A stretch of DNA of 64,000 nucleotides from contig CBDESZ010000005.1 in NCBI GenBank assembly GCA_965242725.1, positions 91,577 to 155,576 on the forward strand, in the 5' to 3' direction. Position 1 is the stretch's first letter. Every line of letters begins with the position of its first letter. Positions 29,930 to 48,318 of this stretch are shown here, piece after piece. The position numbers and the translations under genes are program-made. The notes under the pieces were generated by a model that saw only the letters and a program-made list of their open reading frames with translations, was not told where the DNA came from and did not search any database. This stretch comes from Alkalispirochaeta sp. (GTDB lineage: Bacteria; Spirochaetota; Spirochaetia; DSM-27196; Alkalispirochaetaceae).

Positions 29930-31328
29930 GAGTCCCATAGAGTGGTGTAAAAAGCGGTGGAACTAAACAGCCACCGCGCGTCTCCGGTAAGCTGTGAATC
30001 GACCAAAACACACAGCAAGGAGACGAACACGGTGACCACTGAAAGCATCGCATTGATGGAGCTGATTGAAAAGCACGGCGACAAGGACTTCCTCAGAGAA
30101 ATTGGCCAATGGACCCTTCAGCGGCTTATGGAGTTGGAAGTTGAGCAGCAGGTGGGCGCCGGACCGCACGAGCGGACTGACGATCGGACTACCCATCGTA
30201 ACGGCTATCGGGATCGAACATTGGAGACACGAATCGGATCGCTGTCATTGCGAATTCCGAAGCTTCGGTCCGGTAGCTATTTCCCGTCGTTTCTGGACCC
30301 CCGGAAGAAGAGTGAGCACGCCCTCGTCGCGGTTGTCCAGGAGGCGTACATCAACGGCGTCAGCACCCGTAAGGTCGATGATCTGGTTCAGTCGATGGGA
30401 ATGACCGGGATATCCAAGAGCCAGGTATCGCGGCTTTGCGCGGAACTGGACGAGCAGGTAAAAACGTTCCTGGAACGTCCTCTCAGCGGGGACTGGGCGT
30501 ATGTCTGGTTTGACGCGACGTACGTGAAGTCGCGGAACGATGGACGAGTTGTGAGCCGTGCGATTGTTGTTGCGGTGGGAGTAAGTGCCGAAGGACGCCG
30601 TGAAGTGCTCGGAATCGCCGTCGGACCGGCTGAGACAGAGGCGTTCTGGATGGAGTTTCTGCGTTCCCTGGTAGCACGAGGACTCTCCGGGGTGCGATTG
30701 GTGATCTCCGATGCCCACATCGGGTTGAAGAACGCCATCAGCCAAGTACTGGGAGCAACCTGGCAACGGTGTCGTGTGCACTTCATGCATCAGCCGCGTA
30801 CCGCAGGTACGAGGAACGCGGCGACAGGAATGCGTTGGCCCACGTACCTCGCAAGCAGCATCAGATGGTCGCCGCAGTGATCCGTACCGCATTCGTTCAA
30901 GAGAGCCGAGACGACGCGGTAGCGCAATGGCGGGAGACGGCCGATCGGCTGAGAGATCGTTTTCCGAAACTGGGAGAGCTCATGGATGACGCTGAGGCCG
31001 ATGTTCTCGCATTCATGACGTTCCCGAAAGAACATTGGCGGCAGATATCAAGCACGAACCCGCTGGAACGCATCAACAAGGAGATTAAGCGGCGGACCAA
31101 CGTTGTCGGCATCTTCCCGAATGATGGAGCGATCACCCGTCTGGTAGGAGCTCTGGTGAACGAACAATCGGATGAGTGGCAGGTAACTCGAAAGTATATG
31201 AGCCAGGAGAGCTTGCAGAAGGTTCTCAAACCGGCGTCGGAGCAGCGGATGTTGTCGGCGGAAGGAACGGATATGGTAGCGTAGGCTCAGCTACCGGAGA
31301 CGAAAAGTTACACCACTTGACGGGACGC
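29930..31328 (+). mobile_element. IS256-family insertion sequence
   Basis: Imperfect IRs GAGTCCCATAGAGTGGTGTAA / TTACACCACTTGACGGGACGC; no TSD seen. Confidence 0.88.
30032..31284 (+). pseudogene. IS256 (Mutator) transposase, frameshifted by a 38-bp insertion at 30788-30825
   Basis: RNGYR, DATYVK, SDAH, QRCRVHFM | RNALAHVP, STNPLERINKEIKRR; removing 38 bp restores the frame. Confidence 0.9.
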
Positions 31329-31524
31329 AACACACGAACGGGTTTCTGATTAAATCGCTCGTATTTCGTTGTATCCGGAGAGAAATATTTCTATCTTTCG
31401 AATAACACAGGTACTTATTCTCGCAGATGTACAAGATTAGGAATAACCGATTTCCAGTAAACGGTATTGGCGGCTCATCCGAAAAAGACATCGGTTAGTC
31501 GAAATATGACCAAGGAGGCAATCG

Positions 31525-32496
31525 ATGAAAGTGGTAAGTGTCCCCAAATACGGCTCTCCAGACGGACTTGAGATACGAGAAGTTCCGATTCCTGATCCAA
31601 GTTCGGGAGAAGTCTTGGTCAAACTATCCGCTGCATCGGTGAATGCCGGCGACTGGCATATTGTTCGGGGTACACCTTGGATCATTCGTTTGATGTTCGG
31701 CGTTAACAAACCAAAGATAACGGCGCTCGGTTCGGACATGGCCGGCATCGTCGAAACAGTTGGTGACGGCGTGACGAAGTTCGTTCCGGGGGATGCGGTG
31801 TTTGCATCACTACCAAACTTTGGCGCGTTTGCAGAGTATGCCCTGGTCTCATCGGACGCTTTGGTGAAAAAACCCACGGGACTCAGCTTCGAAGAGGCTG
31901 CAGCTATTCCACTATCCGGCGTGACGGCCTTGCAAGGGCTCAGGGACGTAGGCAAGATTACAAAAGATGATCGTGTTCTTATCATCGGCGCGTCGGGCGG
32001 CGTTGGTTCTTTTGCCGTCCAGATAGCGAAAGCTTTCGGTGCGCGAGTCACAGCCGTTTGCAGTACGACTAAAATACAGATGGTACAATCCCTTGGAGCA
32101 GATGAGGTTGTTGACTACAAAGTAGAAGACGTGACTTTACGTAGAAATGAGTTCGACCTCGTTCTTGATGCCGGCGCATTTCGTTCTATCTTCGACTATA
32201 GCGGGTGTCTTTCGAAGACCGGACGATACGTCCTCGTAGGAGGTTCCAACGCTCAGTTTTTTCAGGCAATGCTTCTGGGACCGCTGAGATCAAAAAAAAC
32301 AGGGCAGCGATTCGGTACGATGACCATGAAGTCCAACCCCGAAGACTTAGCGTTCCTCACAGGGCTTGTCGACGCGGGGAAGTTACGGTCGATCGTTGGG
32401 CAGCGCTTCTCTCTCACCGATGCCGCTGCGGCAGTGCGTTGCCTCGAAAACGGTTGCTCTACCGGGAAGGTCATCATCACAATCGCAAAAAGTTAA
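31525..32496 (+). CDS. NAD(P)-dependent alcohol dehydrogenase / quinone oxidoreductase (MDR family)
   Basis: AASVNAGD, GASGGVGSFAVQIAK, GKVIIT. Confidence 0.92.
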   Translation: MKVVSVPKYGSPDGLEIREVPIPDPSSGEVLVKLSAASVNAGDWHIVRGTPWIIRLMFGVNKPKITALGSDMAGIVETVGDGVTKFVPGDAVFASLPNFGAFAEYALVSSDALVKKPTGLSFEEAAAIPLSGVTALQGLRDVGKITKDDRVLIIGASGGVGSFAVQIAKAFGARVTAVCSTTKIQMVQSLGADEVVDYKVEDVTLRRNEFDLVLDAGAFRSIFDYSGCLSKTGRYVLVGGSNAQFFQAMLLGPLRSKKTGQRFGTMTMKSNPEDLAFLTGLVDAGKLRSIVGQRFSLTDAAAAVRCLENGCSTGKVIITIAKS

Positions 32497-32576
32497 CTCG
32501 AAATGTATCAAGATGCATCGATAGCCGAGTATTCGATACCGCCCGGTTTGAGAAGTTCACAATAAACTCGACCGGA

Positions 32577-32702
32577 ACATAACGACGACATCACCTGCAA
32601 TCTGCAGCCCGGAGCCGCGTAGCGGCGGAGGGATTGGCACGTGTTTTTGCGGATGCAAAAACCGTGACAAGAAAAATGTTGTAGTCCACCGAAATGCTAT
32701 AT
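32577..32702 (-). repeat. attC (126 bp) with mutated inverse core (AGC instead of AAC)
   Basis: Close to 34846-34970 in sequence; directly follows the AAA gene stop. Confidence 0.85.
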
Positions 32703-33863
32703 CGCGGTTTGAACCAGCTCCTCATGTAGAGCCTTCCATCCTACTACGCGGGTTCCATTTCTTTCATATGAGTCATCGCCTGCATACACTAGATATGTGG
32801 CAGGGGTATCGGCCTTTGCCAGAGTCTTCCAATAATCGAGACCGGAAAAAGCATCATTCCTGATTGTCTTCCCCGATTTGATCTCGATCCCCGATTGCTT
32901 CATTCCCGACTCAAGAATGACATCGATCTCTTTGCGATGATTGTCACGCCAGAAATAGAGGCCAAATTTCTCCCCTATGTTGAAATTGCTTTTCACTAAT
33001 TCCGTCACGACAAATGTCTCGAACAACGCCCCCTTGAGAAAATGATAATCAAGCTGATCCTTATCCCGAATCCCCAGCAAACTGCATACGAGTCCGGTAT
33101 CGGTAAAATAAATCTTCGGATTCTTCACGATCCGTTTGTTGTAGTTCTTGTGATACGGCGGAAGCCGATAGATCAGGAAACTTGCTTCCAGTATCGATAT
33201 CCATTCACGAATCGTTCCATGAACGACGCCACATTGCTCCGAGATTGATGACAGATTCAGTTCCTGTCCCGTTCTTCCCGCCAGGATACGCAAGAATTTT
33301 AGGAATCCATCGATTTTTGTTATTTGCTTGATCTGACGAATATCTTTCTCAATGTAGGTTGCGATGTAGTTTTTATAGAACGTTTCGGGACGAATATGCT
33401 GATCGTAGATTCGAGGGTAGCTACCCGCAAAAAGCAAATCTGATATATCCAGATTGAAAGTTCTCATTTCATACGCGGAGAACGGCAGTAGCCTTGTGAG
33501 ACCGACACGTCCGGCAAGTGATTGGGTAATCTGTTCCATTAGCAGAAAGTTGTGTGAACCGGTGATAATAATTCGGCCGGTCGTGTCAAGTTGATCAACG
33601 TGTGTCTGGAGATACGAAATGAGGTGGGGGACTCGTTGGATTTCATCAAAAATGACATCTGAATGAAATCGCCCCAGGAATCCTCTGGGATCGGATTTGG
33701 CAAATTCTCGATGATCGATATCCTCCAGACTCACATAATCAAAATTGGGAAACAGCTTTTTCGCGAGGGTAGTCTTGCCCGATTGTCGCGGCCCAAGGAT
33801 CGCCACGAGTGGGAACTCGGTGCTCAGCGAATGGATTTCAGCTTCTAATTGTCGATCGATCAT
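32697..33863 (-). CDS. AAA+ ATPase with DUF4143 domain
   Basis: GPRQSGKTT, FDEIQR, SLAGR, PKIYFTDTGL, EIDV...EIK. Confidence 0.92.
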   Translation of the reverse strand: MIDRQLEAEIHSLSTEFPLVAILGPRQSGKTTLAKKLFPNFDYVSLEDIDHREFAKSDPRGFLGRFHSDVIFDEIQRVPHLISYLQTHVDQLDTTGRIIITGSHNFLLMEQITQSLAGRVGLTRLLPFSAYEMRTFNLDISDLLFAGSYPRIYDQHIRPETFYKNYIATYIEKDIRQIKQITKIDGFLKFLRILAGRTGQELNLSSISEQCGVVHGTIREWISILEASFLIYRLPPYHKNYNKRIVKNPKIYFTDTGLVCSLLGIRDKDQLDYHFLKGALFETFVVTELVKSNFNIGEKFGLYFWRDNHRKEIDVILESGMKQSGIEIKSGKTIRNDAFSGLDYWKTLAKADTPATYLVYAGDDSYERNGTRVVGWKALHEELVQTAI

Positions 33864-33921
33864 GGTCTTAGCATAGTTTATATGTACAAATTGTCAATAC
33901 AAAAAAACATTTTGTACCGCG

Positions 33922-33982
33922 ATATAACGAAAGAGCTCAGTTACGTGGCGAGAGCCACGACAACTGGAGAGAAATGTTACAT
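33922..33982 (-). repeat. attC (61 bp)
   Basis: ATATAAC...CAGTTACGTGGCGAGAGCCACGACAACTG...GTTACAT; antitoxin stop lies in the inverse core. Confidence 0.88.
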
Positions 33983-34297
33983 TGCGTCCTTCCCTATACT
34001 ACCTCCGATCACATTTCTGATTTCATCTGTTTCTACGAGTTGATCGGTCACGTATTTATGAATGATTGAACTTATCAGCGTCTGATAGGGTACACCTTCT
34101 CGAGACGCCCGGAGTTTTGTCATCTCAAGATCTTGTTCCGACAATCGGAGACTGATCGCTCGAGATTTACGGGCGGTATCAAGAATTTTCTCGATTCGTT
34201 TTCGCTTTTCAGGACCGACAGACACCGTCTGATCAGCGTTGTTTTCGATTTCTCGTTCTTCGGGCGTCAAATCGAATTCGCCATTCGTTAAGTTCAT
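33977..34297 (-). CDS. Antitoxin (CopG/BrnA-like RHH)
   Basis: ISLRLSEQDL...GVPYQTLISSIIHKY; ATGA-coupled to the toxin. Confidence 0.85.
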   Translation of the reverse strand: MNLTNGEFDLTPEEREIENNADQTVSVGPEKRKRIEKILDTARKSRAISLRLSEQDLEMTKLRASREGVPYQTLISSIIHKYVTDQLVETDEIRNVIGGSIGKDAM

Positions 34298-34560
34298 ATG
34301 TTACCTCCGTAGCGTCGATGGTATTTTCGACTGGGAAAAGCCGTTTTCAGAAAGATCGTTTCTGAATCATCTATGAGGAACGGTACCACCCATGTGTAAT
34401 GACGTATCGTGAGGATGAAGTATTGCTGGTTTTCTCTGGTCGGGTTTTCGACGATGTCAAGATAGTCTCCGTCGAGAATCATTCCGGCGATCTCTTCAAA
34501 CGATATTCCCCGTTCTCGCTTGAGAACCGTATTCTTTTCCTCATCCCAGACAACATCCAT
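34294..34560 (-). CDS. BrnT-like toxin
   Basis: WDEEKNTVLKRERGISFEE...FLKTAFPSRK. Confidence 0.85.
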   Translation of the reverse strand: MDVVWDEEKNTVLKRERGISFEEIAGMILDGDYLDIVENPTRENQQYFILTIRHYTWVVPFLIDDSETIFLKTAFPSRKYHRRYGGNI

Positions 34561-34845
34561 ACGATATAATTATACTCCGATTGTATATACATTGTGAATT
34601 GGTGTATTCAACGGTTGCCGGATTGTTCGGGTGTATCACTTTGTAGTCGGGACTATCGACGTCCAGGTCTGATAAGATTTTTCTACGAAAGGTCAAATTC
34701 TTTTTATCTGGCAAAAAACCGCCGATAGGTTCTGGCTGTCGACACTTCCCGATAAGGGGAGTTTTTCGTTCAGGATCATACCGACATAGATTTTTCGTGC
34801 GGGTAAGGTATTGGGCAAAAACACATATTTCGAACCACGGATGCA

Positions 34846-34970
34846 ATGTAACGCTGAGGTCACCTGCCGGTTCCGGCCCGGAGCCGCGTAGCGGCGGAGG
34901 GATTGGCACGTGTTTTTGCGATTGCAAAAACCGTGACAAGAAAATGTTGTAGTCCACCGAATTGTTATCC
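34846..34970 (-). repeat. attC (125 bp)
   Basis: ATGTAAC...GTTATCC; 14-bp complementarity with the core at 35794-35807. Confidence 0.88.
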
Positions 34971-35098
34971 CGCCGTTTACCTTGTACGAAAGTGATTCGT
35001 TTTTAGAAACGGATGCGCCGTTCATGTCGATCGTTCATGTAAACCCGAGAATTGATAAATCGTCGCTCTGGCCAACGCAGAAGTAAAGATCGATCTCA

Positions 35099-35458
35099 TC
35101 ACACAAATTTTTCGACGGATACTTCGAATAACGTCGCGAGTTTCTTCGCCATATTTTTGCTGATCGATCGATGGCCGTTTTCCATATTCGAAATATTTTG
35201 GCGCGTCAGATTTCCGAGTTGTTCTGCCAATTGGTCCTGCGTCATCCCATGCATCTGTCGATACATCCGTACGTTTTCTCCCGGAGTTATTGTCTCCCGG
35301 ATCGACTGATACCAATCACTTTTTGTCACTTCAACTATTTCATCATCTTCGTCTTCGATGACTTCAATCTCTCCGTACTGGTCACGCAAAAATTTCACCA
35401 GCGATCCGCCGATTTCTCCTTCAAGTCTAATATGGGGCTTTTTCACGACTACCTGCAT
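35099..35458 (-). CDS. XRE/HTH antitoxin (HigA-like)
   Basis: GMTQDQLAEQLG...ISNMENGHRSIS; GAGG RBS before MQVVVKKP. Confidence 0.88.
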   Translation of the reverse strand: MQVVVKKPHIRLEGEIGGSLVKFLRDQYGEIEVIEDEDDEIVEVTKSDWYQSIRETITPGENVRMYRQMHGMTQDQLAEQLGNLTRQNISNMENGHRSISKNMAKKLATLFEVSVEKFV

Positions 35459-35711
35459 AGTACACCTCGATTTCCATTTCTCCATTTTCCACGCGCCAAC
35501 ATGCCACCCATGAATAGGAGAGATGGCAATGGTATTCTCGATCGGATAGCTTGCTGAAATTCCGCCATTCGGTTCGTATTGGTCCTTTTCTGATCAGATC
35601 CTCGACCAAATTGGCGAACAAGACTTGTTCTTTCCGCGGCATCTTTCCGATTTGTTTTTCTACCTTTCGGCGGAAGAAGACGCGCCAGGTTTCGTTCGGA
35701 TCTTCAGTCAT
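35427..35711 (-). CDS. RelE-fold toxin (HigB-like)
   Basis: WRNFSKL...YHCHLSYSWVACW...EVYYAGSREKAPY; upstream of the HTH gene. Confidence 0.8.
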   Translation of the reverse strand: MTEDPNETWRVFFRRKVEKQIGKMPRKEQVLFANLVEDLIRKGPIRTEWRNFSKLSDREYHCHLSYSWVACWRVENGEMEIEVYYAGSREKAPY

Positions 35712-35800
35712 GGTCCGGTGTTCCGATTTCAAGTCCGATCTTCACCATGCAATAATTGTAACCATATACTGGTTATTTATCAACCTCACCTTCAACGGCG

Positions 35801-35861
35801 GGATAACGACAGAGCTCAGTTGCGTGGCGAGAGCCACGACAACTGAAGTGACGTGTTATCT
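35801..35861 (-). repeat. attC (61 bp)
   Basis: Close to 33922-33982 in sequence; inverse core complements the core at 39354-39364. Confidence 0.88.
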
Positions 35862-35875
35862 GCCTGACGTCCTGC

Positions 35876-36302: not shown

Positions 36303-36303
36303 C

Positions 36304-36600
36304 TTACGCGACCCGTTTGACATGTGGGTTGGAAAGTATTTGGCGACCGAAATTCACCTGCAAATCAAGATCGACAAGATCAACCGGTCTGGAGGACCGA
36401 TTCAATACCTCGCCGTAAATCGCGAAAAATTTGTTGGCGGGTATACCGCGAACGGCGAAGTCCAAATCCGAGGTCTCCGACGCATGATCTTCCGCAGCGG
36501 AACCGAAGAGATAGATTTCGGAACACCCAATAGACTTCAGGTAGTTGGTAATGATTTCGATATCATCTGCGATTGAATTAAGGGCGGCATTCCTTTCCAT
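36304..36600 (-). CDS. Minimal nucleotidyltransferase (MntA-like antitoxin)
   Basis: LFGS-X10-DLD motif, VDLVDL. Confidence 0.9.
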   Translation of the reverse strand: MERNAALNSIADDIEIITNYLKSIGCSEIYLFGSAAEDHASETSDLDFAVRGIPANKFFAIYGEVLNRSSRPVDLVDLDLQVNFGRQILSNPHVKRVA

Positions 36601-36717
36601 GTATTTCAGTATACATGGAAAAGAAAGCAGGATTGAATGGTTTGTCAAGGGCCGCGTAATTCCCCACCCCAGGGCCATCCATATTCCCCAGTGAAAATAA
36701 GGGTATCCGGGGGGGTG

Positions 36718-37488
36718 TCACGATTTTGGCGGAGCTGATTTTGAGGTGTGGGAGCCGTGTACTTCCTTCCGGTACGAGCGCCCTTTCGAAGTAATGAGTT
36801 TAATCGCTCCCGAGACCATGCGGTCGAGAATAGCACCACCAACGATGGGATCGGGAAAGATGCTGTACCAGTCCTGCGGCGGTCTGTTGGAAGTGAGAAT
36901 GGTCGAGGAGATACCGTTCCGTTCTTCGGCGATGATGTACAGCATCTCCGCCTCATGCTGATCAAGAGAGCGGAAGGCGAAATCATCGAGGATGAGGACA
37001 TCCACGGAACACGCTTTCTTGAGCATCCGTCGTTGCCGATCAGGTGAAGCGGTAAGGAGGCTGGAAAGCAGCCGCTGAGTGCTGCGGAACAGCACGGTGA
37101 ATCCCTGGCGGCATGCCTCGTGGCCGATCGCTTTCACAATGAACGTCTTCCCGATTCCGGGAGGACCGGCAATAACGAGGTTGGTGTGCTGCTGGATAAA
37201 CCGGCATGATGCCAGGTCGCGGATCGTTGCCGCCGGAAAGACTTCATCATTGAAACGGAAATCGAAGCGATCGAAGGTTTCCCGGGTTCCCAGGGATGCC
37301 TGACTCAACCGTTTGGTGAAGTTGTTCGCCTCCCGGTTTGCCAGTTCGTCGTGGAGAACCAGAGCGAGGAACTCGAGATAACCGAGGCTCTGCTCTTGAG
37401 CCTCAATCAACCGGTGATCAAGCTGCTGGTACGCTCCGGGCATGCGTAGTCGTTTAAGTTCGTGTTCAATTTCGTGAGCCTGCTGCAT
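36718..37488 (-). CDS. istB: IS21 helper ATPase IstB
   Basis: GPPGIGKT, LILDDF, TSNRP...AILDR. Confidence 0.93.
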   Translation of the reverse strand: MQQAHEIEHELKRLRMPGAYQQLDHRLIEAQEQSLGYLEFLALVLHDELANREANNFTKRLSQASLGTRETFDRFDFRFNDEVFPAATIRDLASCRFIQQHTNLVIAGPPGIGKTFIVKAIGHEACRQGFTVLFRSTQRLLSSLLTASPDRQRRMLKKACSVDVLILDDFAFRSLDQHEAEMLYIIAEERNGISSTILTSNRPPQDWYSIFPDPIVGGAILDRMVSGAIKLITSKGRSYRKEVHGSHTSKSAPPKS

Positions 37489-39079
37489 CGAGTTCCTCCT
37501 GAAGGTCAAAGAAATAGGTGATATCCCGTGCCATCGTCATATCGACAGCGGGCGTGGTAGAGAGTGTTCCTCGCCTGCCGGCGGTCCTGTCTAGTTCAAA
37601 CAATGCTTTGAACGTTTTGGGAACGACGATCCGGCGGCGCAGTGCGGTGAGGCAGTGAGTATCAAAGTCCGGATGTTCGCGGAATTCATCCATAACACGG
37701 AGTAGTCCCTGAGCCTGACGGGCGTTGAGATACGCGTGAGGCGCCAGGATTGCGGAAATCAGATCCCGGGCTGCACTCCCGTACGAATTCGCGCGCTGGA
37801 GAAGGTGTTGTGGATAGGACCCGTCCATCATCGCCTGTTTTTCCGCCGGAAAGTCGCTGGTGAAGTAATACACCCGCGTTCCCGGCTCATATGGATAGAT
37901 GCGGATACGCTCCGGGCCATGAAAAATCTCGATCAGGCGCCTGGTAGCGCGTACCGCCACCTGTTTTCCCCGGTATTTCGCCGGAACGGCAAAGCGCATC
38001 TTGTGGTAGCTCAGAAAGCCATCACCCTTGTGAACTTTCGGATAGGCCCAGGAAGCCGGCTCGAATCGCGATTCCGGGAGCGGTTTGAGTGCATTTTGCT
38101 CGGCCACAAACGCTTCCTCAGGTGGAATACGAGTCGTTCCATGCGGTTCCGTACCGTATTCGTCGACACACCATTGAAGCATGTAGCGGTTCATTTCCGT
38201 GAGGGTCGCGGTGGGATGGACTGCTCTGATGACACGATACGCTTCCCTGACAACCGGAATAATCCGCTCGACCTTCCCTTTATCTGTTGCCGTCACTACC
38301 CGAGCGGTATTCACAAAGGTTCCGTAATACTCAGCCACTTCTGCCAGAGACCGGTTCAGCTGCGGGTCCCAGAGGTCCGGTTTAATCACCGCAGCCTTCA
38401 GGTTATCCACCGTGAGAAACTCGGTGACACCGCCGTAGAAATGGAATATCTCAACCACGCTCTCCGCAAAGCTCTGTTCGCTCTGGCTGGTGACCAATTG
38501 GACAAAGGGCTTGCGAGAGTGAGCAAGAATTGCACAGAAGGCGTAGATCGTGCGATTCCGCCCATCCACGGCCAGAAGCCCCATGGTGCCGTAATCAAGT
38601 TGGACCTCCCGACCCGGCGGTAACTCAATACGGATATACGTCTTCTTTGCAACCTCCATTAAACCGTGTTCCCGGGCGAACCGTTTGAACGACGAGTATC
38701 CGATGGAGAGGTTATGGCGCCGGAGGATCACCCGATATGCCGATTTCGGGCGCATCGGTTTTTCGATTTTCCCGTTCTCATCTTTGGACGGAGCGATCAG
38801 TTCGCGCAGTTCATCAAGATGATCAATAAGCTGATCCCTCGCCGGTGTAGACTTCTCACGCGGCTGATCGGCAAGATCTCCTGCCCGTCTCTGAAACGCA
38901 TCCCGGCTGACTGCCAATTCTGCCGGCAGTAGTGACCGCTCCGAGAGAATCCTGATGTATTTCCCGATCGTCTTGCGATCCCATCCAGTGTGTATGGCGA
39001 TCGCGCTTTTGCTTTCTCCGGCGATGGCGCGACGGTATACCTCATAGAGGTGATCAATCTTCAGCATACGGTATCCCAT
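37466..39079 (-). CDS. istA: IS21 transposase IstA
   Basis: PPGREVQLDYG, DNLKAAV, DKGKVER. Confidence 0.93.
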   Translation of the reverse strand: MGYRMLKIDHLYEVYRRAIAGESKSAIAIHTGWDRKTIGKYIRILSERSLLPAELAVSRDAFQRRAGDLADQPREKSTPARDQLIDHLDELRELIAPSKDENGKIEKPMRPKSAYRVILRRHNLSIGYSSFKRFAREHGLMEVAKKTYIRIELPPGREVQLDYGTMGLLAVDGRNRTIYAFCAILAHSRKPFVQLVTSQSEQSFAESVVEIFHFYGGVTEFLTVDNLKAAVIKPDLWDPQLNRSLAEVAEYYGTFVNTARVVTATDKGKVERIIPVVREAYRVIRAVHPTATLTEMNRYMLQWCVDEYGTEPHGTTRIPPEEAFVAEQNALKPLPESRFEPASWAYPKVHKGDGFLSYHKMRFAVPAKYRGKQVAVRATRRLIEIFHGPERIRIYPYEPGTRVYYFTSDFPAEKQAMMDGSYPQHLLQRANSYGSAARDLISAILAPHAYLNARQAQGLLRVMDEFREHPDFDTHCLTALRRRIVVPKTFKALFELDRTAGRRGTLSTTPAVDMTMARDITYFFDLQEELDAAGSRN

Positions 39080-39435: not shown

Positions 39436-40992
39436 ATGGCACGGTTTCGTGAGTACTCGTATGACCAGACTATGATGTTACCGGTGGCGCTGGGGCGGCA
39501 GCTGCAGCCAGGAAGTTTCGAACACGCCGTCAATCATCTCGTAGACCATTGCATCGATCGAACGGTCTTTGAAGAGCGCTATACAAATGACGACACCGGC
39601 GCCCCCGTCATCGATCCAACGATTCTTCTGAAAATCATCCTGTTCGCCTACTCCCGAGGTATCCTCTCAAGTCGGGCAATTGCCCGGGCATGCGAGGAAA
39701 ATGTCATCTTTATGGCGCTCTCAGCGGACACCCGCCCCCACTTCACCACGATCGCCAACTTCATCTCTTCGATGGACGGTGTTATTGCTCCGTTGTTTCG
39801 AGATGTGCTCACCGTTTGCTACACCGAGGGTCTCATCGGCCGGCAGATGTTCGCCATCGACGGCTGCAAGATCTCCTCGAACTGTGCCAAAGAGTGGAGC
39901 GGAACGAAAAAGGAGCTTCTGAAGAAGGCGGAGACGATCGAGCGGTCAATAGAAGCGTTGGTGGCACGCCACCGGGAAGAGGACGAGAAGCAGATTCGTT
40001 CTGAGAGCAGAGAGAGTGAAGAGCAAAAGATCGCGACATTGAAAAAGAAGGCGGAAAAGATCATCTCTTGGACCTGTGAGAACGAAGACCGGATCGGTCG
40101 GCGGGGTAAGCCGGTGAAAAGCAACCTCACCGACAACGAAAGCGCCAAGCTGGTGAGCTCTCACGGAGTCATCCAGGGCTACAATGGTATAGCCACCGTG
40201 GACGCCACGCATCAGATCGTGGTGGATGCCCAAGCCTTCGGAGACGTCCATGAGGCCGCTCATGTCAAAGAGATCATCAAGTCGGTGGAAGCCACTTTTT
40301 CCTTCATGGATCCCGGCAAGAAGCCCTTCGACTCGGTAGTCGTTACCGCCGACAGCGGCTTTAACAGCGAAGAGGCCACAGCCGCGGTACTGGATGCCGG
40401 TATTGATGCGTACATCGCGGATCCGCGATTTCGAAAACGGGATCCTCGCTTCGTCAATCAACAGGAGCATAAGGCAAAGACCACCGACCGGAAGCAAACT
40501 TCCAAGGCGCGAAAATACTTCACTGCTGACGAGTTCACCTTCAATGATGAGGGAGTTCTCGTCTGTCCGGCAGGCAAACCGATGAAGAGTAGTTGTCCGA
40601 ACTGGAAGGACAAAAAGGGCTACACCGGCCGAACCTTCAAGGGGTATCCGGTGCACTGCGGCGATTGCCCGTTGCGAGGCCAGTGCCTCCGAAGCCCCAA
40701 CTCACCGGTCCGGCAGGTGACCAAGACCGATCGAGGTCTGCGACACAACACGAAGAGCGCCGTCGCGCGGATGATCGAGCGCTTCGATACCGAGCGAGGC
40801 CGCCACTACTATTCAAAACGAATGGGAACCGTGGAACCGGTCTTCGGAAACACCAGAGCCGCGCTCGGTTTGGACCGTTTTACGCTCCGCGGTCGTCGGA
40901 AGGTGGACGCGCAATGGAAGCTCTACTGCATCGTACACAACATCGGAAAGCTAGCCCGATACGGACCGTCGTTCGCCAGCGCAACCGGCTAA
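39436..40992 (+). CDS. IS1182-family transposase
   Basis: LLKIILFAY...SSRAI, PHFTTIANF, IDGCK, ADSGF, VEPVFG. Confidence 0.93.
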   Translation: MARFREYSYDQTMMLPVALGRQLQPGSFEHAVNHLVDHCIDRTVFEERYTNDDTGAPVIDPTILLKIILFAYSRGILSSRAIARACEENVIFMALSADTRPHFTTIANFISSMDGVIAPLFRDVLTVCYTEGLIGRQMFAIDGCKISSNCAKEWSGTKKELLKKAETIERSIEALVARHREEDEKQIRSESRESEEQKIATLKKKAEKIISWTCENEDRIGRRGKPVKSNLTDNESAKLVSSHGVIQGYNGIATVDATHQIVVDAQAFGDVHEAAHVKEIIKSVEATFSFMDPGKKPFDSVVVTADSGFNSEEATAAVLDAGIDAYIADPRFRKRDPRFVNQQEHKAKTTDRKQTSKARKYFTADEFTFNDEGVLVCPAGKPMKSSCPNWKDKKGYTGRTFKGYPVHCGDCPLRGQCLRSPNSPVRQVTKTDRGLRHNTKSAVARMIERFDTERGRHYYSKRMGTVEPVFGNTRAALGLDRFTLRGRRKVDAQWKLYCIVHNIGKLARYGPSFASATG

Positions 40993-41127
40993 ACGAGAAC
41001 GGCTGGAACGATAGCTCCCCAGGGTGTGTACTCCGGTGATTTCGGACAGGGATTCCGGGCGAAAACGGACAGCTGCCTGAAGGAACAAAATCCTCGCCAT
41101 CACTCATAACAGCTGTCCGTTTTCAGG

Positions 41128-41877
41128 TCAATCTACCGCATAGAGTTTCCTCCTCACCGTGTCGCCGGTGATCTCAATTCGGTGAGAATGAAATGCAAGC
41201 CGATCCATGATTGCGTCGGCGATCGTCGGGTCGCCTATGAGGGCATGCCAGTTCTCTACCGGTTGCTGAGAGATGATCATTGTTGATTTCCGTCGGTGCC
41301 GGTCCTCAAGGATTTCAAGGAGAGCCATTCGAGAGGTATGGTTGAGCGGCTCCAGGCCGAAGTCGTCGATGAGCAGTAATGCGCTCTTCATGATTCGTGT
41401 CAGATGTTTCAGGTATGTTCCATCCGCCTTGGCCGCTTCGATTTCGTTGAACAGGCGAGATGCGGAAAAGTACGCCACGGAATGGCCGTGCTGGCACGCC
41501 TGATGCCCGAAGGCTGATCCGAGAAAGCTTTTTCCACAACCGGTTGGACCGGTGATGAGAAGATCCTGCCCCCGGGATATCCACGAGCAGTCGGCGAGCC
41601 GAAGAATCTGGTTCTTGTCCAGATTCCGATCCAGGGTGTAGTCGATATCTTCCAATGCAGCCTGGTAGCGGAACCGGGCAGCCCGGGTAAGCCGATCGAG
41701 CCGTCGGTTGTGCTTCTCATCCCATTCGGCGTCGATCAGGTACGTGATCGTCTCGTCGATGGTGAGATCCATGGTTTTTCCGGTTTCCTGAAGCGTGCGA
41801 AACGCCTGGGCCATTCCATGCAGGCGCATCTCGGTCATTCTGTTGATCGTTGCCTGATTATTGTTCATGGTGCTCAT
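41128..41877 (-). CDS. istB: IS21 helper ATPase IstB
   Basis: GPTGCGKS, LLIDDFG, DPTIADAIMDRL. Confidence 0.93.
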   Translation of the reverse strand: MSTMNNNQATINRMTEMRLHGMAQAFRTLQETGKTMDLTIDETITYLIDAEWDEKHNRRLDRLTRAARFRYQAALEDIDYTLDRNLDKNQILRLADCSWISRGQDLLITGPTGCGKSFLGSAFGHQACQHGHSVAYFSASRLFNEIEAAKADGTYLKHLTRIMKSALLLIDDFGLEPLNHTSRMALLEILEDRHRRKSTMIISQQPVENWHALIGDPTIADAIMDRLAFHSHRIEITGDTVRRKLYAVD

Positions 41878-41879
41878 CC

Positions 41880-43427
41880 TTACTTGTAGATTGCCGAATC
41901 ACGCAGATTCTTGTGGTCGGTGAAAAGAAGTACCCGATCATCCTCGTGATCATCCTTCTCCTGGCGCAAAATCTCGTCCAGATACCCACGGACATCCCGA
42001 TAGCTGATTCTGGAGTAGTTAAGGGCTCGTCGACAGGCCAAGTTCAGTCGATCTGAACCGACTTCCTGTGCCATATTCAGCACCCCAAGACAGGACTTGT
42101 ATGCCTGTTGCTCATGGGGTTTATCGCTCAGGAGCCGAGAAATCACCAGGAACGTCTCTTCTCCGATGGAATTGGCCCAGGAGGTGAACTTTTCGGCAGA
42201 CCAGGATTGAAAAAACCGGTGGTGCTTGGGCATGTGCTCGGCTTTTGTCGTGTACTGCCCTTTTTTCCGGCTGCGCCGGTGCTGGGCAACGCGTACGTTG
42301 TCGTGATATACCGCGACGATACGCTCATCGAAGATCACCTTTACCTGCACACCCTTCAACTGCCAGGGAACGGAGTAGTAGTGCTTATCTTCCGACAGGA
42401 TAAAGTGATAGTCCGGTGCAACCTTGTGGTTCTCGAAGGATTTCATCGGATACGGCGCGCTGGGCAGCGTCTTCAGCGCCGATCGTTCGATCTCCTCAAA
42501 CAACTGCCGTCGAGAGATTTGCAGCTTGGTCAATTCTCGAGTATTGTGGGTCTCAAGGCGTTCGGCGATGGCCTGGTTGAGCTCAGCCAACGAATGGAAC
42601 GTCCTGCCGTACAGCGGGGCGAAAATCCGCTGGTAGGTTAATTTGACGGTGTTCTCCGCCAGGGCCTTGTCTTTTGGTTTGTATGCCCTGGCGGGAATAA
42701 CCGTCGTTCGGTAATACTCGGCAAAATCGTCGAACAGCGGATTGATTTCCGGTTCGTATTTGCTTGCCTTGAGCACGGCCGCCTTCAGATTATCCGGTAC
42801 CAGAGCGCGGGGAACTCCGTCGAAATAGCGCAACGCCCGCTCGGTTGAACGGAGAAACGCTTCCTGTTTCTGGCTCTCGTCAGCTTCGACATACGCGAGT
42901 TGGCTTGCTCCGAGTACCGCAACGAATACCTCTGCCTGCTGTTCTTCGCCGTCTCGATAGTACGGGAAGGTCTCACCGGCGTAATCGATGTAGGCCATGT
43001 CTCCCGGTTCGTGAGGTTGCCGCATGGTGACCTCGCCGGATTCCAGGAACATGCCAAAGTGGTGACAGAACTGGCTGTAGCGATACCCGTCGGGGTGCTG
43101 CGTCCGGTACTCCTCCCACAACAGCTGCTTGGTCATTCCCCGGCGCTTTAACCGTTTTGCGTATTCCGGGAAGAGCGCCATCACCTGCGTGTACTGCTCG
43201 CTTTCTTCCTGCTTTTTCTCTTCGAACAGGCCAAGCAGTTCGTCATCGGTGAGCTCAAGGCTCTTCTCAAAGCTGATTCCGGTGCGTCTGAATCGCACCA
43301 GGTATTCACTGATCGTCGTCTTCGATACTCCGGTGAGTCGCGATACGTCCCGAAGCCCCAGTTTGCTCTCGTAGGTGAGCGCAAGCAATTTGCGCATGTG
43401 TTTCACAGGTATCCTCTCTCTCGGCAT
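41880..43427 (-). CDS. istA: IS21 transposase IstA
   Basis: IDYAG, VPDNLKAAV, PKDKALAEN. Confidence 0.93.
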   Translation of the reverse strand: MPRERIPVKHMRKLLALTYESKLGLRDVSRLTGVSKTTISEYLVRFRRTGISFEKSLELTDDELLGLFEEKKQEESEQYTQVMALFPEYAKRLKRRGMTKQLLWEEYRTQHPDGYRYSQFCHHFGMFLESGEVTMRQPHEPGDMAYIDYAGETFPYYRDGEEQQAEVFVAVLGASQLAYVEADESQKQEAFLRSTERALRYFDGVPRALVPDNLKAAVLKASKYEPEINPLFDDFAEYYRTTVIPARAYKPKDKALAENTVKLTYQRIFAPLYGRTFHSLAELNQAIAERLETHNTRELTKLQISRRQLFEEIERSALKTLPSAPYPMKSFENHKVAPDYHFILSEDKHYYSVPWQLKGVQVKVIFDERIVAVYHDNVRVAQHRRSRKKGQYTTKAEHMPKHHRFFQSWSAEKFTSWANSIGEETFLVISRLLSDKPHEQQAYKSCLGVLNMAQEVGSDRLNLACRRALNYSRISYRDVRGYLDEILRQEKDDHEDDRVLLFTDHKNLRDSAIYK

Positions 43428-43734
43428 TCCGTACTCCCTCACAATGATGTTACCCACCAGTTTGCCGGGAGTGCCCGTATTGATCGAGGATCTCTTCTGT
43501 CAGGCTGAATCGATTCCGGCGCTCCGGAAAAACTGTCCGTTTTCCGCCGGAATCGGTGTCCGGATTACGCCGGAATCACTGTCCGCTTTCCACCGGAATA
43601 CGTGTCCGTTTTGGGCCGGTGTACACAAGGGAACGGCAGCCGGGTATTAGTCCGCTCAGCCCGGGAAATCTGTCCTCCTCGGGGGCCCTGAAGAGAACCG
43701 AACTTCCGCCAAAACGGACTTTTTCTACAGGCAA

Positions 43735-43886
43735 AACGTGGAGCTCAGCTGCCGGCTGCGGCCTGAGCGAAGCGAAGGATTGGCGCGTTAATTGCGGTCA
43801 GAAGATGGATCGTATTGATTTAAATTATTTCCTTAAAAGCAATTAACGTGCCAAAGCAACGGTCTGCTGGAGCGATCATGTTATGA
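43735..43886 (-). repeat. attC (~155 bp, AT-rich apex); its core (39358-39364) is separated by IS1182
   Basis: CGTTAATTGC/GCAATTAACG stem; GTTATGAAGCCA complements the core at 44851-44862. Confidence 0.85.
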
Positions 43887-43991
43887 AGCCAAGTCAACTT
43901 CATGAATCGTTTACTCAGGGCGACGGCGCATCCTTGACTTGAACTCGAAATCAGCTTTTCAACAATCCAACATTCTGAATTTGGCGACGCC

Positions 43992-44804
43992 CTATTCAGA
44001 CAAGAGTTCGTAGCGATCTCTTTCGTTGTCGGCAAGGCGTTCGTACTCCCTTCGATCAATTGCGATAATTTCCTTTGAGGACAGCCCCCTAATCGCGGCC
44101 TTTACCATTACGAAGTCCTCGCTGAATGACCTAAGCACAGTTTCGGGGTCAAAGCCCTTGCGTGCAAACGCAAATCCCAATCCGGGAAGATTCTGCAACC
44201 GTGAAGCGAGGTTGATGCACGGTCCGACGTAATCATCCCCTGATCCAATCGAGTAAACATTACCTTTTGCAATACCGCATCTAAGCATTTCTGGTGGATC
44301 AGGGTATTTTTTCGACACTTTAGGAAGGAAGCTATCTTCATACTCAAAGCAGATATTGCTCATCGACATGATTATGTTGTGTTGGGCTTCTCTTTTTACG
44401 CCAGCGACATTCCAAAGAACAAGAATCCCGTCGCCGAGGAATTTTGTATAAAACGGCAAACTGTGATATAGACGGTAGCCATCGTCGTCTTCTTTCATGA
44501 TTGTTTCTGTCCGAATAGAATCAAACAGCCAGCTTAAGAATTCTGCAAGAAAGGAATTGACAAATAGTTCAGGTTCAGTTTGCGAACAAAAATGCGTAAA
44601 TCCTTTTAGGTCGAAAATCGCGCAGATCGCTTTGGTTATGTCCGATTCGACATTAAGGTTCCCGAGTCTCAACAGGCCGACGTCGAACGAATCGATTTTT
44701 TGTTTGTCAAAGACGCGAACCCTCTTCCCGTTACGACTAACGAGTCTTGAATCCTTCTTGGACGCAACGTATCGCAAAACGCCTCCTTTCGTACTCCCGG
44801 CCAT
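43992..44804 (-). CDS. Stand-alone class III nucleotide cyclase-domain protein
   Basis: IFDLKGFT, KFLGDGIL, LRCGIAKG, DYVGPCINLASRLQ. Confidence 0.85.
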   Translation of the reverse strand: MAGSTKGGVLRYVASKKDSRLVSRNGKRVRVFDKQKIDSFDVGLLRLGNLNVESDITKAICAIFDLKGFTHFCSQTEPELFVNSFLAEFLSWLFDSIRTETIMKEDDDGYRLYHSLPFYTKFLGDGILVLWNVAGVKREAQHNIIMSMSNICFEYEDSFLPKVSKKYPDPPEMLRCGIAKGNVYSIGSGDDYVGPCINLASRLQNLPGLGFAFARKGFDPETVLRSFSEDFVMVKAAIRGLSSKEIIAIDRREYERLADNERDRYELLSE

Positions 44805-44855
44805 TGTATCATGTGGTGTTCCGTTGACTAGACTTCTTATAACGTAACTCTGGCT

Positions 44856-44965
44856 TCATAACGCAAAGGTGACCTGCGTGGCGTGATTGGCGTGGCCGTT
44901 GCCGGCGGAGCCGATTCGCAACGGCCATGACAATGGCCACGACAGGTCAACCGGTCTTGTTACAC
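44856..44965 (-). repeat. attC (110 bp) of non-coding cassette A
   Basis: L boxes GGT[T]GACC/GGTCACC; near-identical to 47040-47141. Confidence 0.88.
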
Positions 44966-45205
44966 TGCGATCGACACAGTTTTCGGAGTATCGCCATGCG
45001 GATATCTGGCACCAGGTTCTCGCCCGCGAATGTCTCGATTTGCTCGAAGGGCAAATCGAGCGTACGTGGGCGCGGAGCAGAAAAGGCACCGACAACAACG
45101 GGGTTGCCCCGGATTCCTTCCCGATTTTCGATTTAAAAAAATTGATCCGATCGGATGGTTTGTCCCTCACGTCCTACCAACGGAGCCGGTCATTTGCAGT
45201 GTAAC
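44959..45205. other. ORF-less structured gene cassette, copy A
   Basis: Bounded by GTTACACTGC/GCAGTGTAAC; paralog at 48752-49001. Confidence 0.85.
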
Positions 45206-45317
45206 GTTGGCTTGAGCTGCTGGCTGCGACCCGACCGAAGGGAGGGACTGGCGCGGTTCTTGCCGAAGAGCAAGAACCGTGACAGAAGCAACAGACTGCT
45301 CGAAGCCGTTGTTATGC
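45199..45317 (-). repeat. attC (119 bp)
   Basis: GCATAAC-N5-CTT[C]GAGC...GCTCAAG-N5-GTTACAC, with the canonical extrahelical base, 2 nt after the DUF262 stop. Confidence 0.92.
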
Positions 45318-45319
45318 AG

Positions 45320-46981
45320 TCAGCGATTCACAACGTCCTTGCAGATCGAGACAATGGCTGCTGTGCGCTGTGCCAGAAAATCGTCGTAGTTATCGTAAGA
45401 CAGGTTTTCAGGATGATCAGAATAGTGATCAACGAGGAGATGTTTTTTTATCTTGATTCCGGCATCCCTCAACTCTGCGAAATGGTTGGCGGGATCCTGA
45501 GCCCGTTTTCGAAGGTTCTCGGTTGCACCACAAAATCTGTAGTTGCCGATGTGGTTGATTCGGCTGGTTGGCAAATTTCTCAACTTGCTCTTCGGAAATA
45601 TATGGTCAATGTGTGGTTCGTTTCCTTTGTACCGAACGTGGAACGGACTACTTCCGTGCTGTTCGACATATATCAGGTTTAGGACGATAAAGCGCAACCG
45701 CATGTCAATAGAATCGCCGGTCAGTTCTACCTGTCTGTTCTGCCGCCGAAAATATGACTTTATCTCAGCAAGTGGGAAATCGCTAGGCGCACTCTTTTGC
45801 TGGATCTGAGCGCACGTGTTAAGCACTTGGTCTGTTCGAGCCGAAAACCAATTGAACATTTGAGAACCGTAGTAGTACGCCTTCAACAACGGGTAGGCTG
45901 TGACTGGTGGAGAAGGTGACCCGTAGAAATAGTTGAACACCGGAATCAGGGCGTTGTAAGAGCGCACGACCTTGTCAGAGTACAGTTGAAGCTGGTTCTT
46001 CAAAAAATCTGATAACTGCAGAAACGCGCGTTCTAATTTATTCCAATTGTCCTGAATCTTGGCCAACACCTGGGCGCCTGCGTTTGAAGCCAGATACTTG
46101 GGCGACAATACTGCTGATTCACCAACAGCAACCATAATCGCTTTCAATGCGAAAGTCTTATCGAAAAGTAAGCGCCCGTCGCTGTTGAGATCAGCCACCA
46201 CGTTTTCGATGTTTTCTTCGACCGGCGTCCACGCCTCCTTCATGACCGCAAACAGCAAATCCGATGGTTCGAGTTTCGTACCTCCGGAATTCACTCGCAC
46301 GAAAATGTTCAAAATGTTTTTGTAATCATATTCTTCGGACGCGGTGCCATCGAGTTCATCAACCCACAGGTACGTGTCTTCACGCAGTATTGATGCAAGT
46401 TGTGCCACATTTCTTCGAACTAAACGTTGGCGTTGCCGTCGAGCATCTGACGATTCCTCGAGAGAATCATCCAACTGGTCATTAATCTCATCGGAAATAT
46501 CATTGGCGTTTTTCTTGTTGGCGTAGAGTGAACTAATCGCGAACCATGGGAAGTCAAGCTGGTCGTTACTCAATTCAAAACGATACGAGATCCCGTCTTC
46601 AATCTCTTCGTCGCCTGACAGAAGATCGATGAACAGTCGCTTGTCACCGAAAGTTCCATCATATGCGAAGAAGAGGGATTGAAGACGTTGTTGACCATCA
46701 AGTACAAGGACTTTGGTCCTACCCTCTTGGCTCACCGTCGAATCGTAGTAGTCTCGGAGCACCGGATCCTCTTCGTAGTTGTCCATGAACCTCCGACATT
46801 GGATTTCGTCATCGGTTTTCCAAAATAGGAGCGTCTGAAACGGGTAGTTCTTCATCAAAGTGTCAAAGAACCTGACCACTTGCTGAAAATCCCACACGAA
46901 CGGACGTTGAATATGCGGTAGGTACAACTGTCGGTTCCGAGACTGAAGAAGACTGTTCAGAGATATTGGTTTATAGGCCAT
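45320..46981 (-). CDS. DUF262 + HNH (DUF1524-like) protein, GmrSD-like
   Basis: QRPFVW, LDGQQRL, FVRVNSGG; C-terminal HIDHIFPKS...IGNY...EN. Confidence 0.88.
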   Translation of the reverse strand: MAYKPISLNSLLQSRNRQLYLPHIQRPFVWDFQQVVRFFDTLMKNYPFQTLLFWKTDDEIQCRRFMDNYEEDPVLRDYYDSTVSQEGRTKVLVLDGQQRLQSLFFAYDGTFGDKRLFIDLLSGDEEIEDGISYRFELSNDQLDFPWFAISSLYANKKNANDISDEINDQLDDSLEESSDARRQRQRLVRRNVAQLASILREDTYLWVDELDGTASEEYDYKNILNIFVRVNSGGTKLEPSDLLFAVMKEAWTPVEENIENVVADLNSDGRLLFDKTFALKAIMVAVGESAVLSPKYLASNAGAQVLAKIQDNWNKLERAFLQLSDFLKNQLQLYSDKVVRSYNALIPVFNYFYGSPSPPVTAYPLLKAYYYGSQMFNWFSARTDQVLNTCAQIQQKSAPSDFPLAEIKSYFRRQNRQVELTGDSIDMRLRFIVLNLIYVEQHGSSPFHVRYKGNEPHIDHIFPKSKLRNLPTSRINHIGNYRFCGATENLRKRAQDPANHFAELRDAGIKIKKHLLVDHYSDHPENLSYDNYDDFLAQRTAAIVSICKDVVNR

Positions 46982-47039
46982 TGTTTTACCCCAATCTAAT
47001 CATATCACAGGTTTGTTGGAGTTCGAGTCGAAATTGACT

Positions 47040-47141
47040 GCATAACGCAGAGGTGACCTGCGTGGCGTGATTGGCGTGGCCGTTGCCGGCGCAGCCGATA
47101 GCAACGGCCATGACAATAGCCACGACAGGTCAACTGTCTTG
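47040..47141 (-). repeat. attC of non-coding cassette B, split by IS110 (remainder 48752-48758)
   Basis: Removing the IS restores ...CAACTGTCTTGTTACAC, matching attC 44856-44965. Confidence 0.88.
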
Positions 47142-47217
47142 ATACTCATTAAGGCCTCCCCTGGGAGGTGCGGTAAACTACCGCTATACCCAATCCCTTC
47201 CCGAAGGAGGAGACCTA

Positions 47218-48318
47218 ATGAGGTTCTATAACGAACAGCACGAATTCTACGTTGGTATCGACCATGGTTGCGTTCCTCGGCTCCGCCTGCGGTACGCAAC
47301 CTAAGCAAGAGAGATGTTCGCCTGCGTCCTCAATCGTGATGGCTACGTTCTTCTTCATCGAAACATGAAAGCCGATCGCGATCACCTTGATCGGCTGGTA
47401 CGACGCTTTCCCGGTGACATAGTGATCGCGGTGGAATGCATCTTCACCTGGTATTGGATTGCAGACTTCTGCGATGAACGGGATATCCCATTTGTCTTGG
47501 GGCACGCGCTCTACATGAAAGCCATCCACGGCGGGAAGTCCAAGAACGATAAGATCGATTCACATAAGATCGCAACGATGCTGCGGGCCGGGATGCTTCC
47601 GGAAGCGTATGTGTATCCTCGGGAAATGCGTGCAACACGAGATCTCCTTCGGCGACGCGAATACTTCATGCACCAACAGTCGGAACTTCTGACCCATGTG
47701 AAGAACACCAACACCCAGTACAATTATCCCGCTTTCCAAAAACGAATAGCGGCGACGGCGAATCGACAAGGATTAGAGGAGCGATTCGAAGAACCAAGCG
47801 CCCGAAAAAGCATCGAAGCTGACCTTCATCTCCTGGACGTCTATCACCGCGTTCTACTCGACCTGGAAGCAGAGATAAAACGGCAGGCGAAGCACCACGA
47901 TCCGGTCGCATTTCACCTCCTCCAGACGATCCCCGGGGTTGGTCCAATTCTCTCGCTGGTCATTCTTTATGAGATCCATGACATCAATCGCTTTCCAAAG
48001 GTCGGAAACTTCATCTCCTACGCCCGCCTGGTCAAATGTGCTCACGAGTCCGCCGGGAAACGATCGGGAAGTGGCAATAACAAAATCGGAAATGCGCATC
48101 TGAAATGGGCATTCAGCGAAGCGGCAGTCATTTTCCTCCGTGATCAGGAGGATGCGAAACGTCTACAGCAACGACTCATCCAGAAGTACGGAAAGGCCAA
48201 GGCACTTTCGATCATCGCTCAGAAACTCGGAAGAACTGTCTATTTTATGTTGAAGAGAAAGGAGCCTTTTGTAGCGAAGCGATTCTTTGGAGACGGCGTG
48301 CAGGAGCCGGCAGCATAA
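47218..48318 (+). pseudogene. IS110-family DEDD transposase interrupted by a ~36-bp hairpin insertion with an adjacent in-frame TAA (47302-47304)
   Basis: GGAGG RBS, MRFYNEQHEFYVGID...AREMFAC; VEC, KNDKIDS, IPGVG, ESAGK, GNAHLKWAF. Confidence 0.88.

Follow-up and report, generated by a model that had tools for sequence, protein, structure and literature searches.

Two transposase genes of an Alkalispirochaeta genome are interrupted by REP-like hairpins that were probably mobilised in trans

Two transposase genes in a stretch of 64,000 nucleotides from Alkalispirochaeta sp. (assembly GCA_965242725.1, contig CBDESZ010000005.1, positions 91,577 to 155,576 of the forward strand; this whole stretch is called the window and its first letter is position 1) are each interrupted by a short hairpin. 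The inserts are probably copies of a lineage-specific family of hairpins of 36-50 nucleotides (nt), which resemble repetitive extragenic palindromic (REP) sequences, are mobilised in trans and occur in Alkalispirochaeta-like spirochaetes and in some other bacteria. Members of the family share a fold maintained by compensatory changes, are distributed among related genomes, form arrays and have entered genes cleanly and without duplication at several independent sites. We infer that they moved as a folded single DNA strand, by means of an enzyme acting in trans. A family of ultra-short structured mobile elements had been proposed in an earlier reading of the window made from its letters alone (the sequence-only reading). 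Such elements, mobile in the past, are supported here by defined ends, by the absence of duplications, by filled and empty alleles of one insertion sequence (IS) and by independent inserts in another genome (G009).

The first insert is a 38-nt element (30789-30826, + strand) composed of an ATCA tail, a stem with its loop and a GACA tail. It lies in sense orientation inside the gene of an IS256-family transposase. The N-terminal part of this gene (29957-30788, +) is an open frame until the insert and the C-terminal part (30827-31284, +) is read in another frame. The two parts were matched to positions 5-258 (E 2.5e-88) and 259-377 (E 1.2e-37) of the 379 positions of the Pfam profile Transposase_mut. 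The halves are contiguous at the break and, as had been claimed, removal of the insert rejoins the transposase. A CGG codon is split, in the context TTCATGC/GGAATGCG, where the slash marks the insert. The whole IS256-like element covers approximately 29923-31331 (+), according to the limits of its likeness to copies in genomes G009, G032 and G003 and to contig joints near 31328. Contigs carrying the insert were found in runs X1 and X4, which come from a common sample, probably the source. An empty allele was found in run X5 (sediment metagenome, another study and sample). There, a 252-nt contig joins 30788 to 30827 with zero mismatches and skips exactly 38 nt (30789-30826), with the ends AT..CA. 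The bounds of the inserted 38-nt element are therefore fixed as ATCA-hairpin-GACA. In the sequence-only reading the 38-bp insert had been placed at 30788-30825; its presence was confirmed and its position was moved one base to the right on the basis of the empty allele. Filled and empty alleles of the same IS256 exist.

The second insert is a 36-nt element (47266-47301, - strand), antisense to the IS110-family (DEDD) transposase gene that contains it (47218-48318, +; Pfam DEDD_Tnp_IS110 and Transposase_20). This gene is interrupted after codon 16. An in-frame TAA (47302-47304, +) is present immediately 3' of the hairpin, and the Leu codon of the GIDLH motif is absent at the junction. The window protein is 98% identical, over all 337 residues, to an intact protein of 354 aa (P0001). 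P0001 reads GIDLHAREMF and the window gene reads GID-H-(36 nt)-stop-AREMF; the IS110 relatives encode GAC CTN/TTR CAY GCA at the insert site. Since the Leu codon is absent by comparison with P0001, the IS110 insert is not the simple insertion that had been described, although its coordinates and the in-frame TAA were correct. Either the Leu codon is gone, or a further small deletion may have altered the site. A search of metagenome contigs with exact 24-nt words for the DNA of a closely related intact IS110 copy gave 0 matches; loci retrieved by protein-guided search were at most 72% identical. Alignment with uninterrupted copies, which had been proposed as a way to define the junctions, was thus successful for IS256 and not for IS110. 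No contig joint was reported at the IS110 insert site when contigs of the sequencing runs were compared with the window.

Both inserts fall in conserved protein motifs. As noted earlier, neither is bordered by a target-site duplication or a terminal inverted repeat. The motif that the inserts had been said to share was written as GCGTACCGCAGG-N(0-12)-CGAGGAACGC. It has exactly two matches in the window, at 30796-30819 (+) and 47270-47297 (-), and was matched in 0 of 100 shuffles. With the covariance model R1 (see below), run on the window with filters off, the IS256 and IS110 inserts were scored at 47.1 and 49.0 bits and the next best stretch at 16.1 bits. A likeness of the hairpin core to an integron-type attC site at 29746-29769 had also been proposed; it is weak, and this site gave no R1 match at E <= 10 in the same scan. 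Folded as single-stranded DNA, both inserts form hairpins, with z values of -2.8 (IS256) and -5.0 (IS110) relative to shuffles.

The family was seeded from a permissive search over all 34 contigs (4.34 Mb) of the assembly. The further copies keep the two conserved halves and differ in their outer stems and apical hairpins. Ten copies were aligned (alignment A1) and converted into R1. In the source genome (G000), the best 150 of about 5,800 first-look candidates were scored with R1, which gave 16 matches at E <= 0.001 and 19 at E <= 10, three of them being the second copy of the rRNA operon. R1 was then applied to 60 relatives as well, and matches were obtained in 35 of the 61 genomes (1-49 per genome). 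The motif is therefore not limited to two copies, a point on which the sequence-only reading had asked for a wider search. Matches were present in 16/16 other genomes of the genus, in 20/21 of the family and in 5/5 genomes of each of two other families of the order; few or none were found in six others. At least 150 matches were obtained in G061 (Spirochaetaceae, 2.5 Mb), from the best 150 of 1520 candidates. An exact-pattern scan with one genome per species returned at least 125 stretches. Among the matches listed, copies that are hairpin-like by their flanks came from Alkalispirochaeta, Spirochaeta and Spirochaetaceae, with a few from metagenome-assembled genomes of Opitutaceae and Deferribacterales. 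In the actinobacterial and other pattern matches the gaps are long and unstructured, and these matches seem to be coincidences within coding sequence. In the draft genome G009, contigs C107, C338, C507, C438, C258 and C150 have hairpin arrays at their ends. Arrays therefore probably break the assembly, and the copy numbers of drafts are underestimates. No literature description of the hairpin was found. Membership of an Rfam family was rejected for lack of a covariance-model match: no gathering-score match was found in the window, and when copy-rich loci were scanned, 16 kb of them with a limit of E <= 1 and 7 kb with a limit of E <= 10, no match overlapped a hairpin.

Structure statistics were calculated on the 118 distinct copies among 150 aligned (alignment A2), an alignment that was fitted to the model and thus favours structure. 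In the basal stem 97.6% of cells are paired, compared with 81.7% for shuffles. Changes on both sides were seen at 8/10 pairs (173 cells against 30 expected) and each of the outer pairs is represented by four or five pair types. The covariation score was matched by 0/500 shuffles, and slid registers are paired in only 26-43% of cells. The stem is thus strongly supported by compensatory changes. At one position G-U and U-G pairs are frequent (23 cells), so the strand that folds is the strand as modelled. The inner stem has the core CGTACC/GGAACG with an A.A mismatch. Of 109 parsed copies, 74 have GCA/GA as their internal loop (consensus RNA/GA) and 34 have GGA/GA. Above it, the apical stem is variable (1-6 bp). 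The GNA triloops reported for the two inserts were found again in the family: triloops make up 50 of the 65 folded apical loops, with GAA, GTA and GGA as the main kinds, and the closing pair is C-G in 60/65. The apical part is GCGAAGC in seven copies, a heptamer that is the classic extra-stable DNA mini-hairpin. In 137 distinct copies the flanks follow a profile of about AYMA upstream and GACA downstream. A minimal form was observed in the source genome (C15:67906-67934), in which a GAAA loop stands directly on the basal stem, without internal loop or apical stem.

Insertion of the hairpin into genes was documented at other sites. When IS256 relatives were aligned to the window, the copies of G032 and G003 had no insert at all. 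The copy of G009 (78% identical) is free of the window insert and carries two other inserts of 40 nt at different sites. Both are antisense, have the tails ATCA..GACA and ATGA..GTCA and lack a target duplication; three more hairpins lie just outside this IS256 copy. The 38-nt insert of the window is 100% identical to an intergenic copy in another species (G006). A fucokinase-like GHMP kinase gene of G013 contains a sense insert of 51 nt, in frame and without a stop, inside the PxGSGLG motif, and a second insert of 38 nt after GGWQDQIGGVAGG. A partial third copy, with a frame change, lies upstream. No homologue of this kinase gene was found in G000. The counted gene-internal inserts are four in sense and three in antisense orientation. 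The 5' flanks are ATGC, TCGC, TTAC, AGGC and CCAA, with no more than a loose preference for C at the last base.

The placement of copies was surveyed on the 150 best-scoring copies from the source genome and its relatives. Thirty-three of them lie on the same strand as a tRNA gene and at most 200 nt downstream of it, against 0 in the three other arrangements. These copies correspond to 24 locus-by-tRNA combinations; 11 tRNA species are involved, and several families of the order are represented. Of the copies, 27/33 are at Leu or Ser tRNAs and nine begin within 3 nt of the tRNA end. Many of the loci are orthologous, so these counts are not independent. In the source genome, hairpins begin 2-5 nt past tRNA-Leu(taa), tRNA-Ser(tga) and tRNA-Leu(caa), the last having a tandem pair, and others lie 68 nt past tRNA-Leu(cag) and 90 nt past tRNA-Arg(gcg). 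The minimal form mentioned above, a weak truncated copy, is antisense and lies 57 nt from the 3' end of tRNA-Val(cac); it is an exception to the sense-downstream placement. Each rRNA operon of this genome has three hairpins: the 23S-5S spacer contains an antisense one, and two in sense orientation follow 5S. One further hairpin is upstream of cysD and one is just before the start of another gene. Gene-internal placement was supported for 6/150 copies, four in two IS families and two in the kinase gene, and was not supported for the other 144. The remaining copies lie in intergenic DNA, near 5S rRNA or in arrays that separate housekeeping genes. An open-frame test flagged 19 rows besides the six that were kept. 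Ten loci (L232, L004, L234, L238, L263, L266, L049, L268, L038 and L233/L035, the last added by hand) were checked against Pfam or NCBIfam, leaving aside flagged rows at tRNA, rRNA and array loci, and no split gene was found in them. The special link to transposase genes suggested by the sequence-only reading is not upheld by these numbers. Many copies without enrichment in mobile-element genes had been set beforehand as the mark of a REP-like repeat, and the family is therefore classed as one.

Arrays were found in several genomes. Those of G014 have a period of about 47, 54 or 95-100 nt and lie between unrelated housekeeping genes (between a Fe-hydrogenase gene and aroD/E; between a TetR gene and a dehydrogenase gene; beside ppk; beside mnhE). 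One of them is antisense to both neighbours. The arrays of G061 consist of 2-9 identical units with a period of 48-51 nt and share conserved upstream and downstream sequence. At L092 and L132 of this genome, in about 100 nt on either side, most arrays share an upstream TTGACT box and a downstream T-run. These flanks could serve as promoter and terminator for an RNA with several hairpins, or could mark where a larger composite repeat ends. Two other loci were recorded. At L245 (G009:C30, 1388-5510), three paralogous genes follow each other every 1.9-2.0 kb with a hairpin directly before each start codon, ending GTCA-ATG. At L232 (G019:C55, 1249-1897), a hairpin lies at the end of a bAvd-like gene, and the open frame beside it has an Lcl_C-like domain; the locus is possibly that of a diversity-generating retroelement.

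According to the preferred reading, the folded single DNA strand would be cut at its tails and pasted elsewhere by a trans-acting enzyme other than a REP-associated tyrosine transposase (RAYT) or an IS200-type Y1 transposase. Copies would persist where they are harmless or useful: downstream of tRNA and rRNA genes, in untranslated regions, and within insertion sequences or dispensable genes. The disruption of the two transposases would be a by-product. The placement of the resident tRNA-trailer copies suggests that they serve, or are tolerated, as RNA 3'-end elements. A RAYT/Y1 transposase was considered as the mobiliser and rejected, because Y1_Tnp is missing from most hairpin-bearing genomes. 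Y1_Tnp (PF01797) gave 0 matches in G000, G014, G030 and G038 and is present in only 2/16 members of the genus. G061 has one weak Y1-like gene, from which every hairpin is more than 1.5 kb away, and the protein of this gene, used as a query, found no relative in five further hairpin-bearing genomes or in G000. A co-occurring Y1-type HUH gene flanked by the motif, of the kind that the sequence-only reading had suggested looking for, was not seen in G000 or G061.

Several observations weigh against a mobile element of this kind. The mobilising enzyme was not found. The strict sense-downstream position at tRNA genes points to an RNA role or to a targeted process and would not be expected of plain selfish DNA. 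IS200/IS605-type single-strand transposons show replication-strand bias. No clear bias was detected here: in G014, 13 loci against 8 were counted relative to dnaA (1.594 Mb), which is not significant, and in G061 both hairpin orientations are mixed along the chromosome (best 150 of 1520 candidates). The empty allele is supported by one contig with a depth of 3.1 and a shorter side of 26 nt. No copy identical to either insert was found in the G000 assembly, and the IS110 junction is not clean. Finally, the inserts are clustered, with two within 17 kb in the window, two in one IS and three beside it in G009, and two or three in one gene in G013, which could reflect local copying rather than transposition.

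The family was compared with known short repeats. REPs are imperfect palindromes of 20-40 nt, present in tens to hundreds of mainly extragenic and clustered copies whose number varies between related species; they are occasionally found inside genes and are thought to be mobile as folded single strands (PMC3733652). Like the REPs and bacterial interspersed mosaic elements (BIMEs) linked to RAYTs, the hairpin is a short imperfect palindrome with many, mainly extragenic copies. It differs from them in having no GTAG/GTGG end (137 distinct copies), in the absence of a RAYT from most genomes that carry it, and in its conserved internal loop, A.A mismatch and strict post-tRNA position. Its arrays are head-to-tail, whereas the units of BIMEs alternate. 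CGTC-tagged REPs are reported by Di Nocera et al. (2013) to lack a dedicated transposase and to be present in phyla that include the Spirochaetes; their tails are short and unpaired, they lie within genes in some cases, and they are built of a CGTC head, a plain stem of 8-9 bp, a loop of 4-5 nt and a CCA-like tail (PMC3733652). They are closest in kind to the hairpin, being REP-like, with short tails and no dedicated transposase. They are distinguished from it by its CGTACC/GGAACG core, A.A mismatch, 3x2 internal loop, triloops (50/65) and GACA tail.

IS200/IS605 elements and their miniature derivatives, the palindrome-associated transposable elements (PATEs), have neither target duplications nor terminal inverted repeats, depend on hairpins and are inserted and excised seamlessly. 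The hairpin family shares the lack of target duplications and terminal inverted repeats. IS200/IS605 requires a Y1 HUH transposase and a fixed 5' target of 4-5 nt, whereas the hairpin occurs without Y1_Tnp, has varied 5' flanks and is an element made of a single 38-nt hairpin. An attC site recombines as a folded single strand in which the stem is conserved, the central bases are unpaired and the apical part varies; it has a size of about 57-140 nt and paired R and L boxes (RYYYAAC/GTTRRRY). The conserved stem, unpaired bases and variable apical part are found in the hairpin too; the R/L boxes and the attC size are not. Mitochondrial GC clusters and byps are short palindromic mobile elements that land in protein-coding genes. 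The ribosome skips byps by means of matched codons, and none are present at the hairpin inserts. Rickettsia palindromic elements are also described as short palindromic mobile elements that land in protein-coding genes (PMC3733652). They are 100-150 nt long and in frame, whereas the hairpin inserts of 38 and 40 nt shift the frame. A miniature inverted-repeat transposable element was rejected, since there is no duplication at the three IS256 insert junctions and the ends are unlike those of the IS elements of the window. The hairpin arrays of UG27 reverse transcriptases were rejected as unlike; their units are given as about 150 nt with a pseudoknot (bioRxiv 10.64898/2026.09.22.753630).

Other explanations were weighed. 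As the main rival of the preferred reading, or its complement, the hairpin could primarily be a functional RNA, for instance a signal for 3'-end formation, processing or protection of tRNA, 5S rRNA and some mRNAs, bound by a protein at its internal loop. Gene-internal copies would then be rare copying accidents, produced by recombination with arrays, by template switching or by reverse transcription of an abundant RNA. This explanation, which we regard as rather unlikely, draws on the position and strand of all 33 tRNA-linked copies at 11 tRNA species, on the two sense copies after 5S rRNA, on copies just upstream of start codons and on the promoter-like upstream sequence and downstream T-run of the G061 arrays. 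Strong covariation and conserved unpaired bases, which are typical of protein-bound RNA, also agree with it. It is at odds with the antisense copies found in the 23S-5S spacer, in the 5S-tRNA spacer of G061, at 3/7 gene insertions and in one G014 array, and it leaves the clean insertion with defined tails unexplained. Moreover, there is no Rfam match, and the C-GNA-G triloops of the family copies are characteristic of very stable mini-hairpins of DNA rather than of RNA. Alternatively, the element would be a new kind of minimal transposon that consists of a single 38-nt hairpin and its defined tails. An enzyme unrelated to the known Y1 HUH transposases, perhaps one of the host, would move the hairpin as single-stranded DNA by seamless cutting and pasting, and as RNA the hairpin would also act as a conserved 3'-trailer of tRNA and 5S genes. 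It would be kept both by its mobility and by its function for the host. We hold this version to be unlikely.

The sequence-only reading had suggested that hairpins are deposited in transposase genes and retained because they silence the IS, or that they act as reversible switches. Both gene-internal copies of the source genome are indeed in transposases, two more are in a related IS256, filled and empty alleles exist and the inserts fall in conserved protein motifs. A dedicated silencing system or an on/off switch is nevertheless very unlikely. Only 4/150 copies are in transposases, the kinase gene was hit two or three times, also in conserved motifs, and the orientation in genes is mixed. Three other IS of the same island (two IS21-type and one IS5/IS1182-type) are untouched. 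Transposase-specific deposition is unsupported, and no gene associated with it was found. Silencing of the IS is a side effect rather than a demonstrated function. The empty allele may be a pre-insertion or a post-excision state, so a reversible switch is indistinguishable from a simple insertion with these data. Tiny introns, or elements skipped by the ribosome in genes that still work, would fit with the otherwise intact state of the interrupted genes, with the presence of several inserts per gene and with the 51-nt kinase insert, which is in frame and without a stop. This is extremely improbable: inserts 38 or 40 nt long disrupt the reading frame, no matching in-frame pair of take-off and landing codons flanks either window insert, and the organism is a bacterium by its 23S rRNA. 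In addition, with four sense and three antisense inserts, there is no single RNA structure common to them.

REP-like repeats are common and yet rarely caught moving, and whole classes of them are without a known transposase. The present family offers clean material, with an exact-ended element of 38 nt, filled and empty IS256 alleles and independent hits in an IS lineage and in a kinase gene. Its conserved unpaired bases, which a protein must read, and the genomes that lack a RAYT make it a good system in which to seek the mobilising enzyme. The strict position and orientation after tRNA genes suggest use by the host, and the family could be employed to study 3'-end formation of tRNA and rRNA.

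The two interrupted transposase genes belong to an island whose other genes were annotated at 29034-29651, 33977-34557, 35099-35482, 36304-36675, 36718-39076, 39436-40989, 41128-43454, 45320-46978 and 49418-49744. Its features are ParE/Phd and BrnT/BrnA toxin-antitoxin pairs, a helix-turn-helix (HTH) protein, a nucleotidyltransferase, a GmrSD-like restriction enzyme and a Gp49/HigB-like gene. The IS21-type elements encode IstA/IstB and the IS5/IS1182-type element a transposase. The putative attC sequence has a single other copy in the genome, 72% identical (stretches 29690-29900 and 43735-43885). Contig joints link 31328, 43864 and 47041, and short repeats flank the IS. Together these observations suggest a repeated IS-flanking or cassette-boundary sequence.

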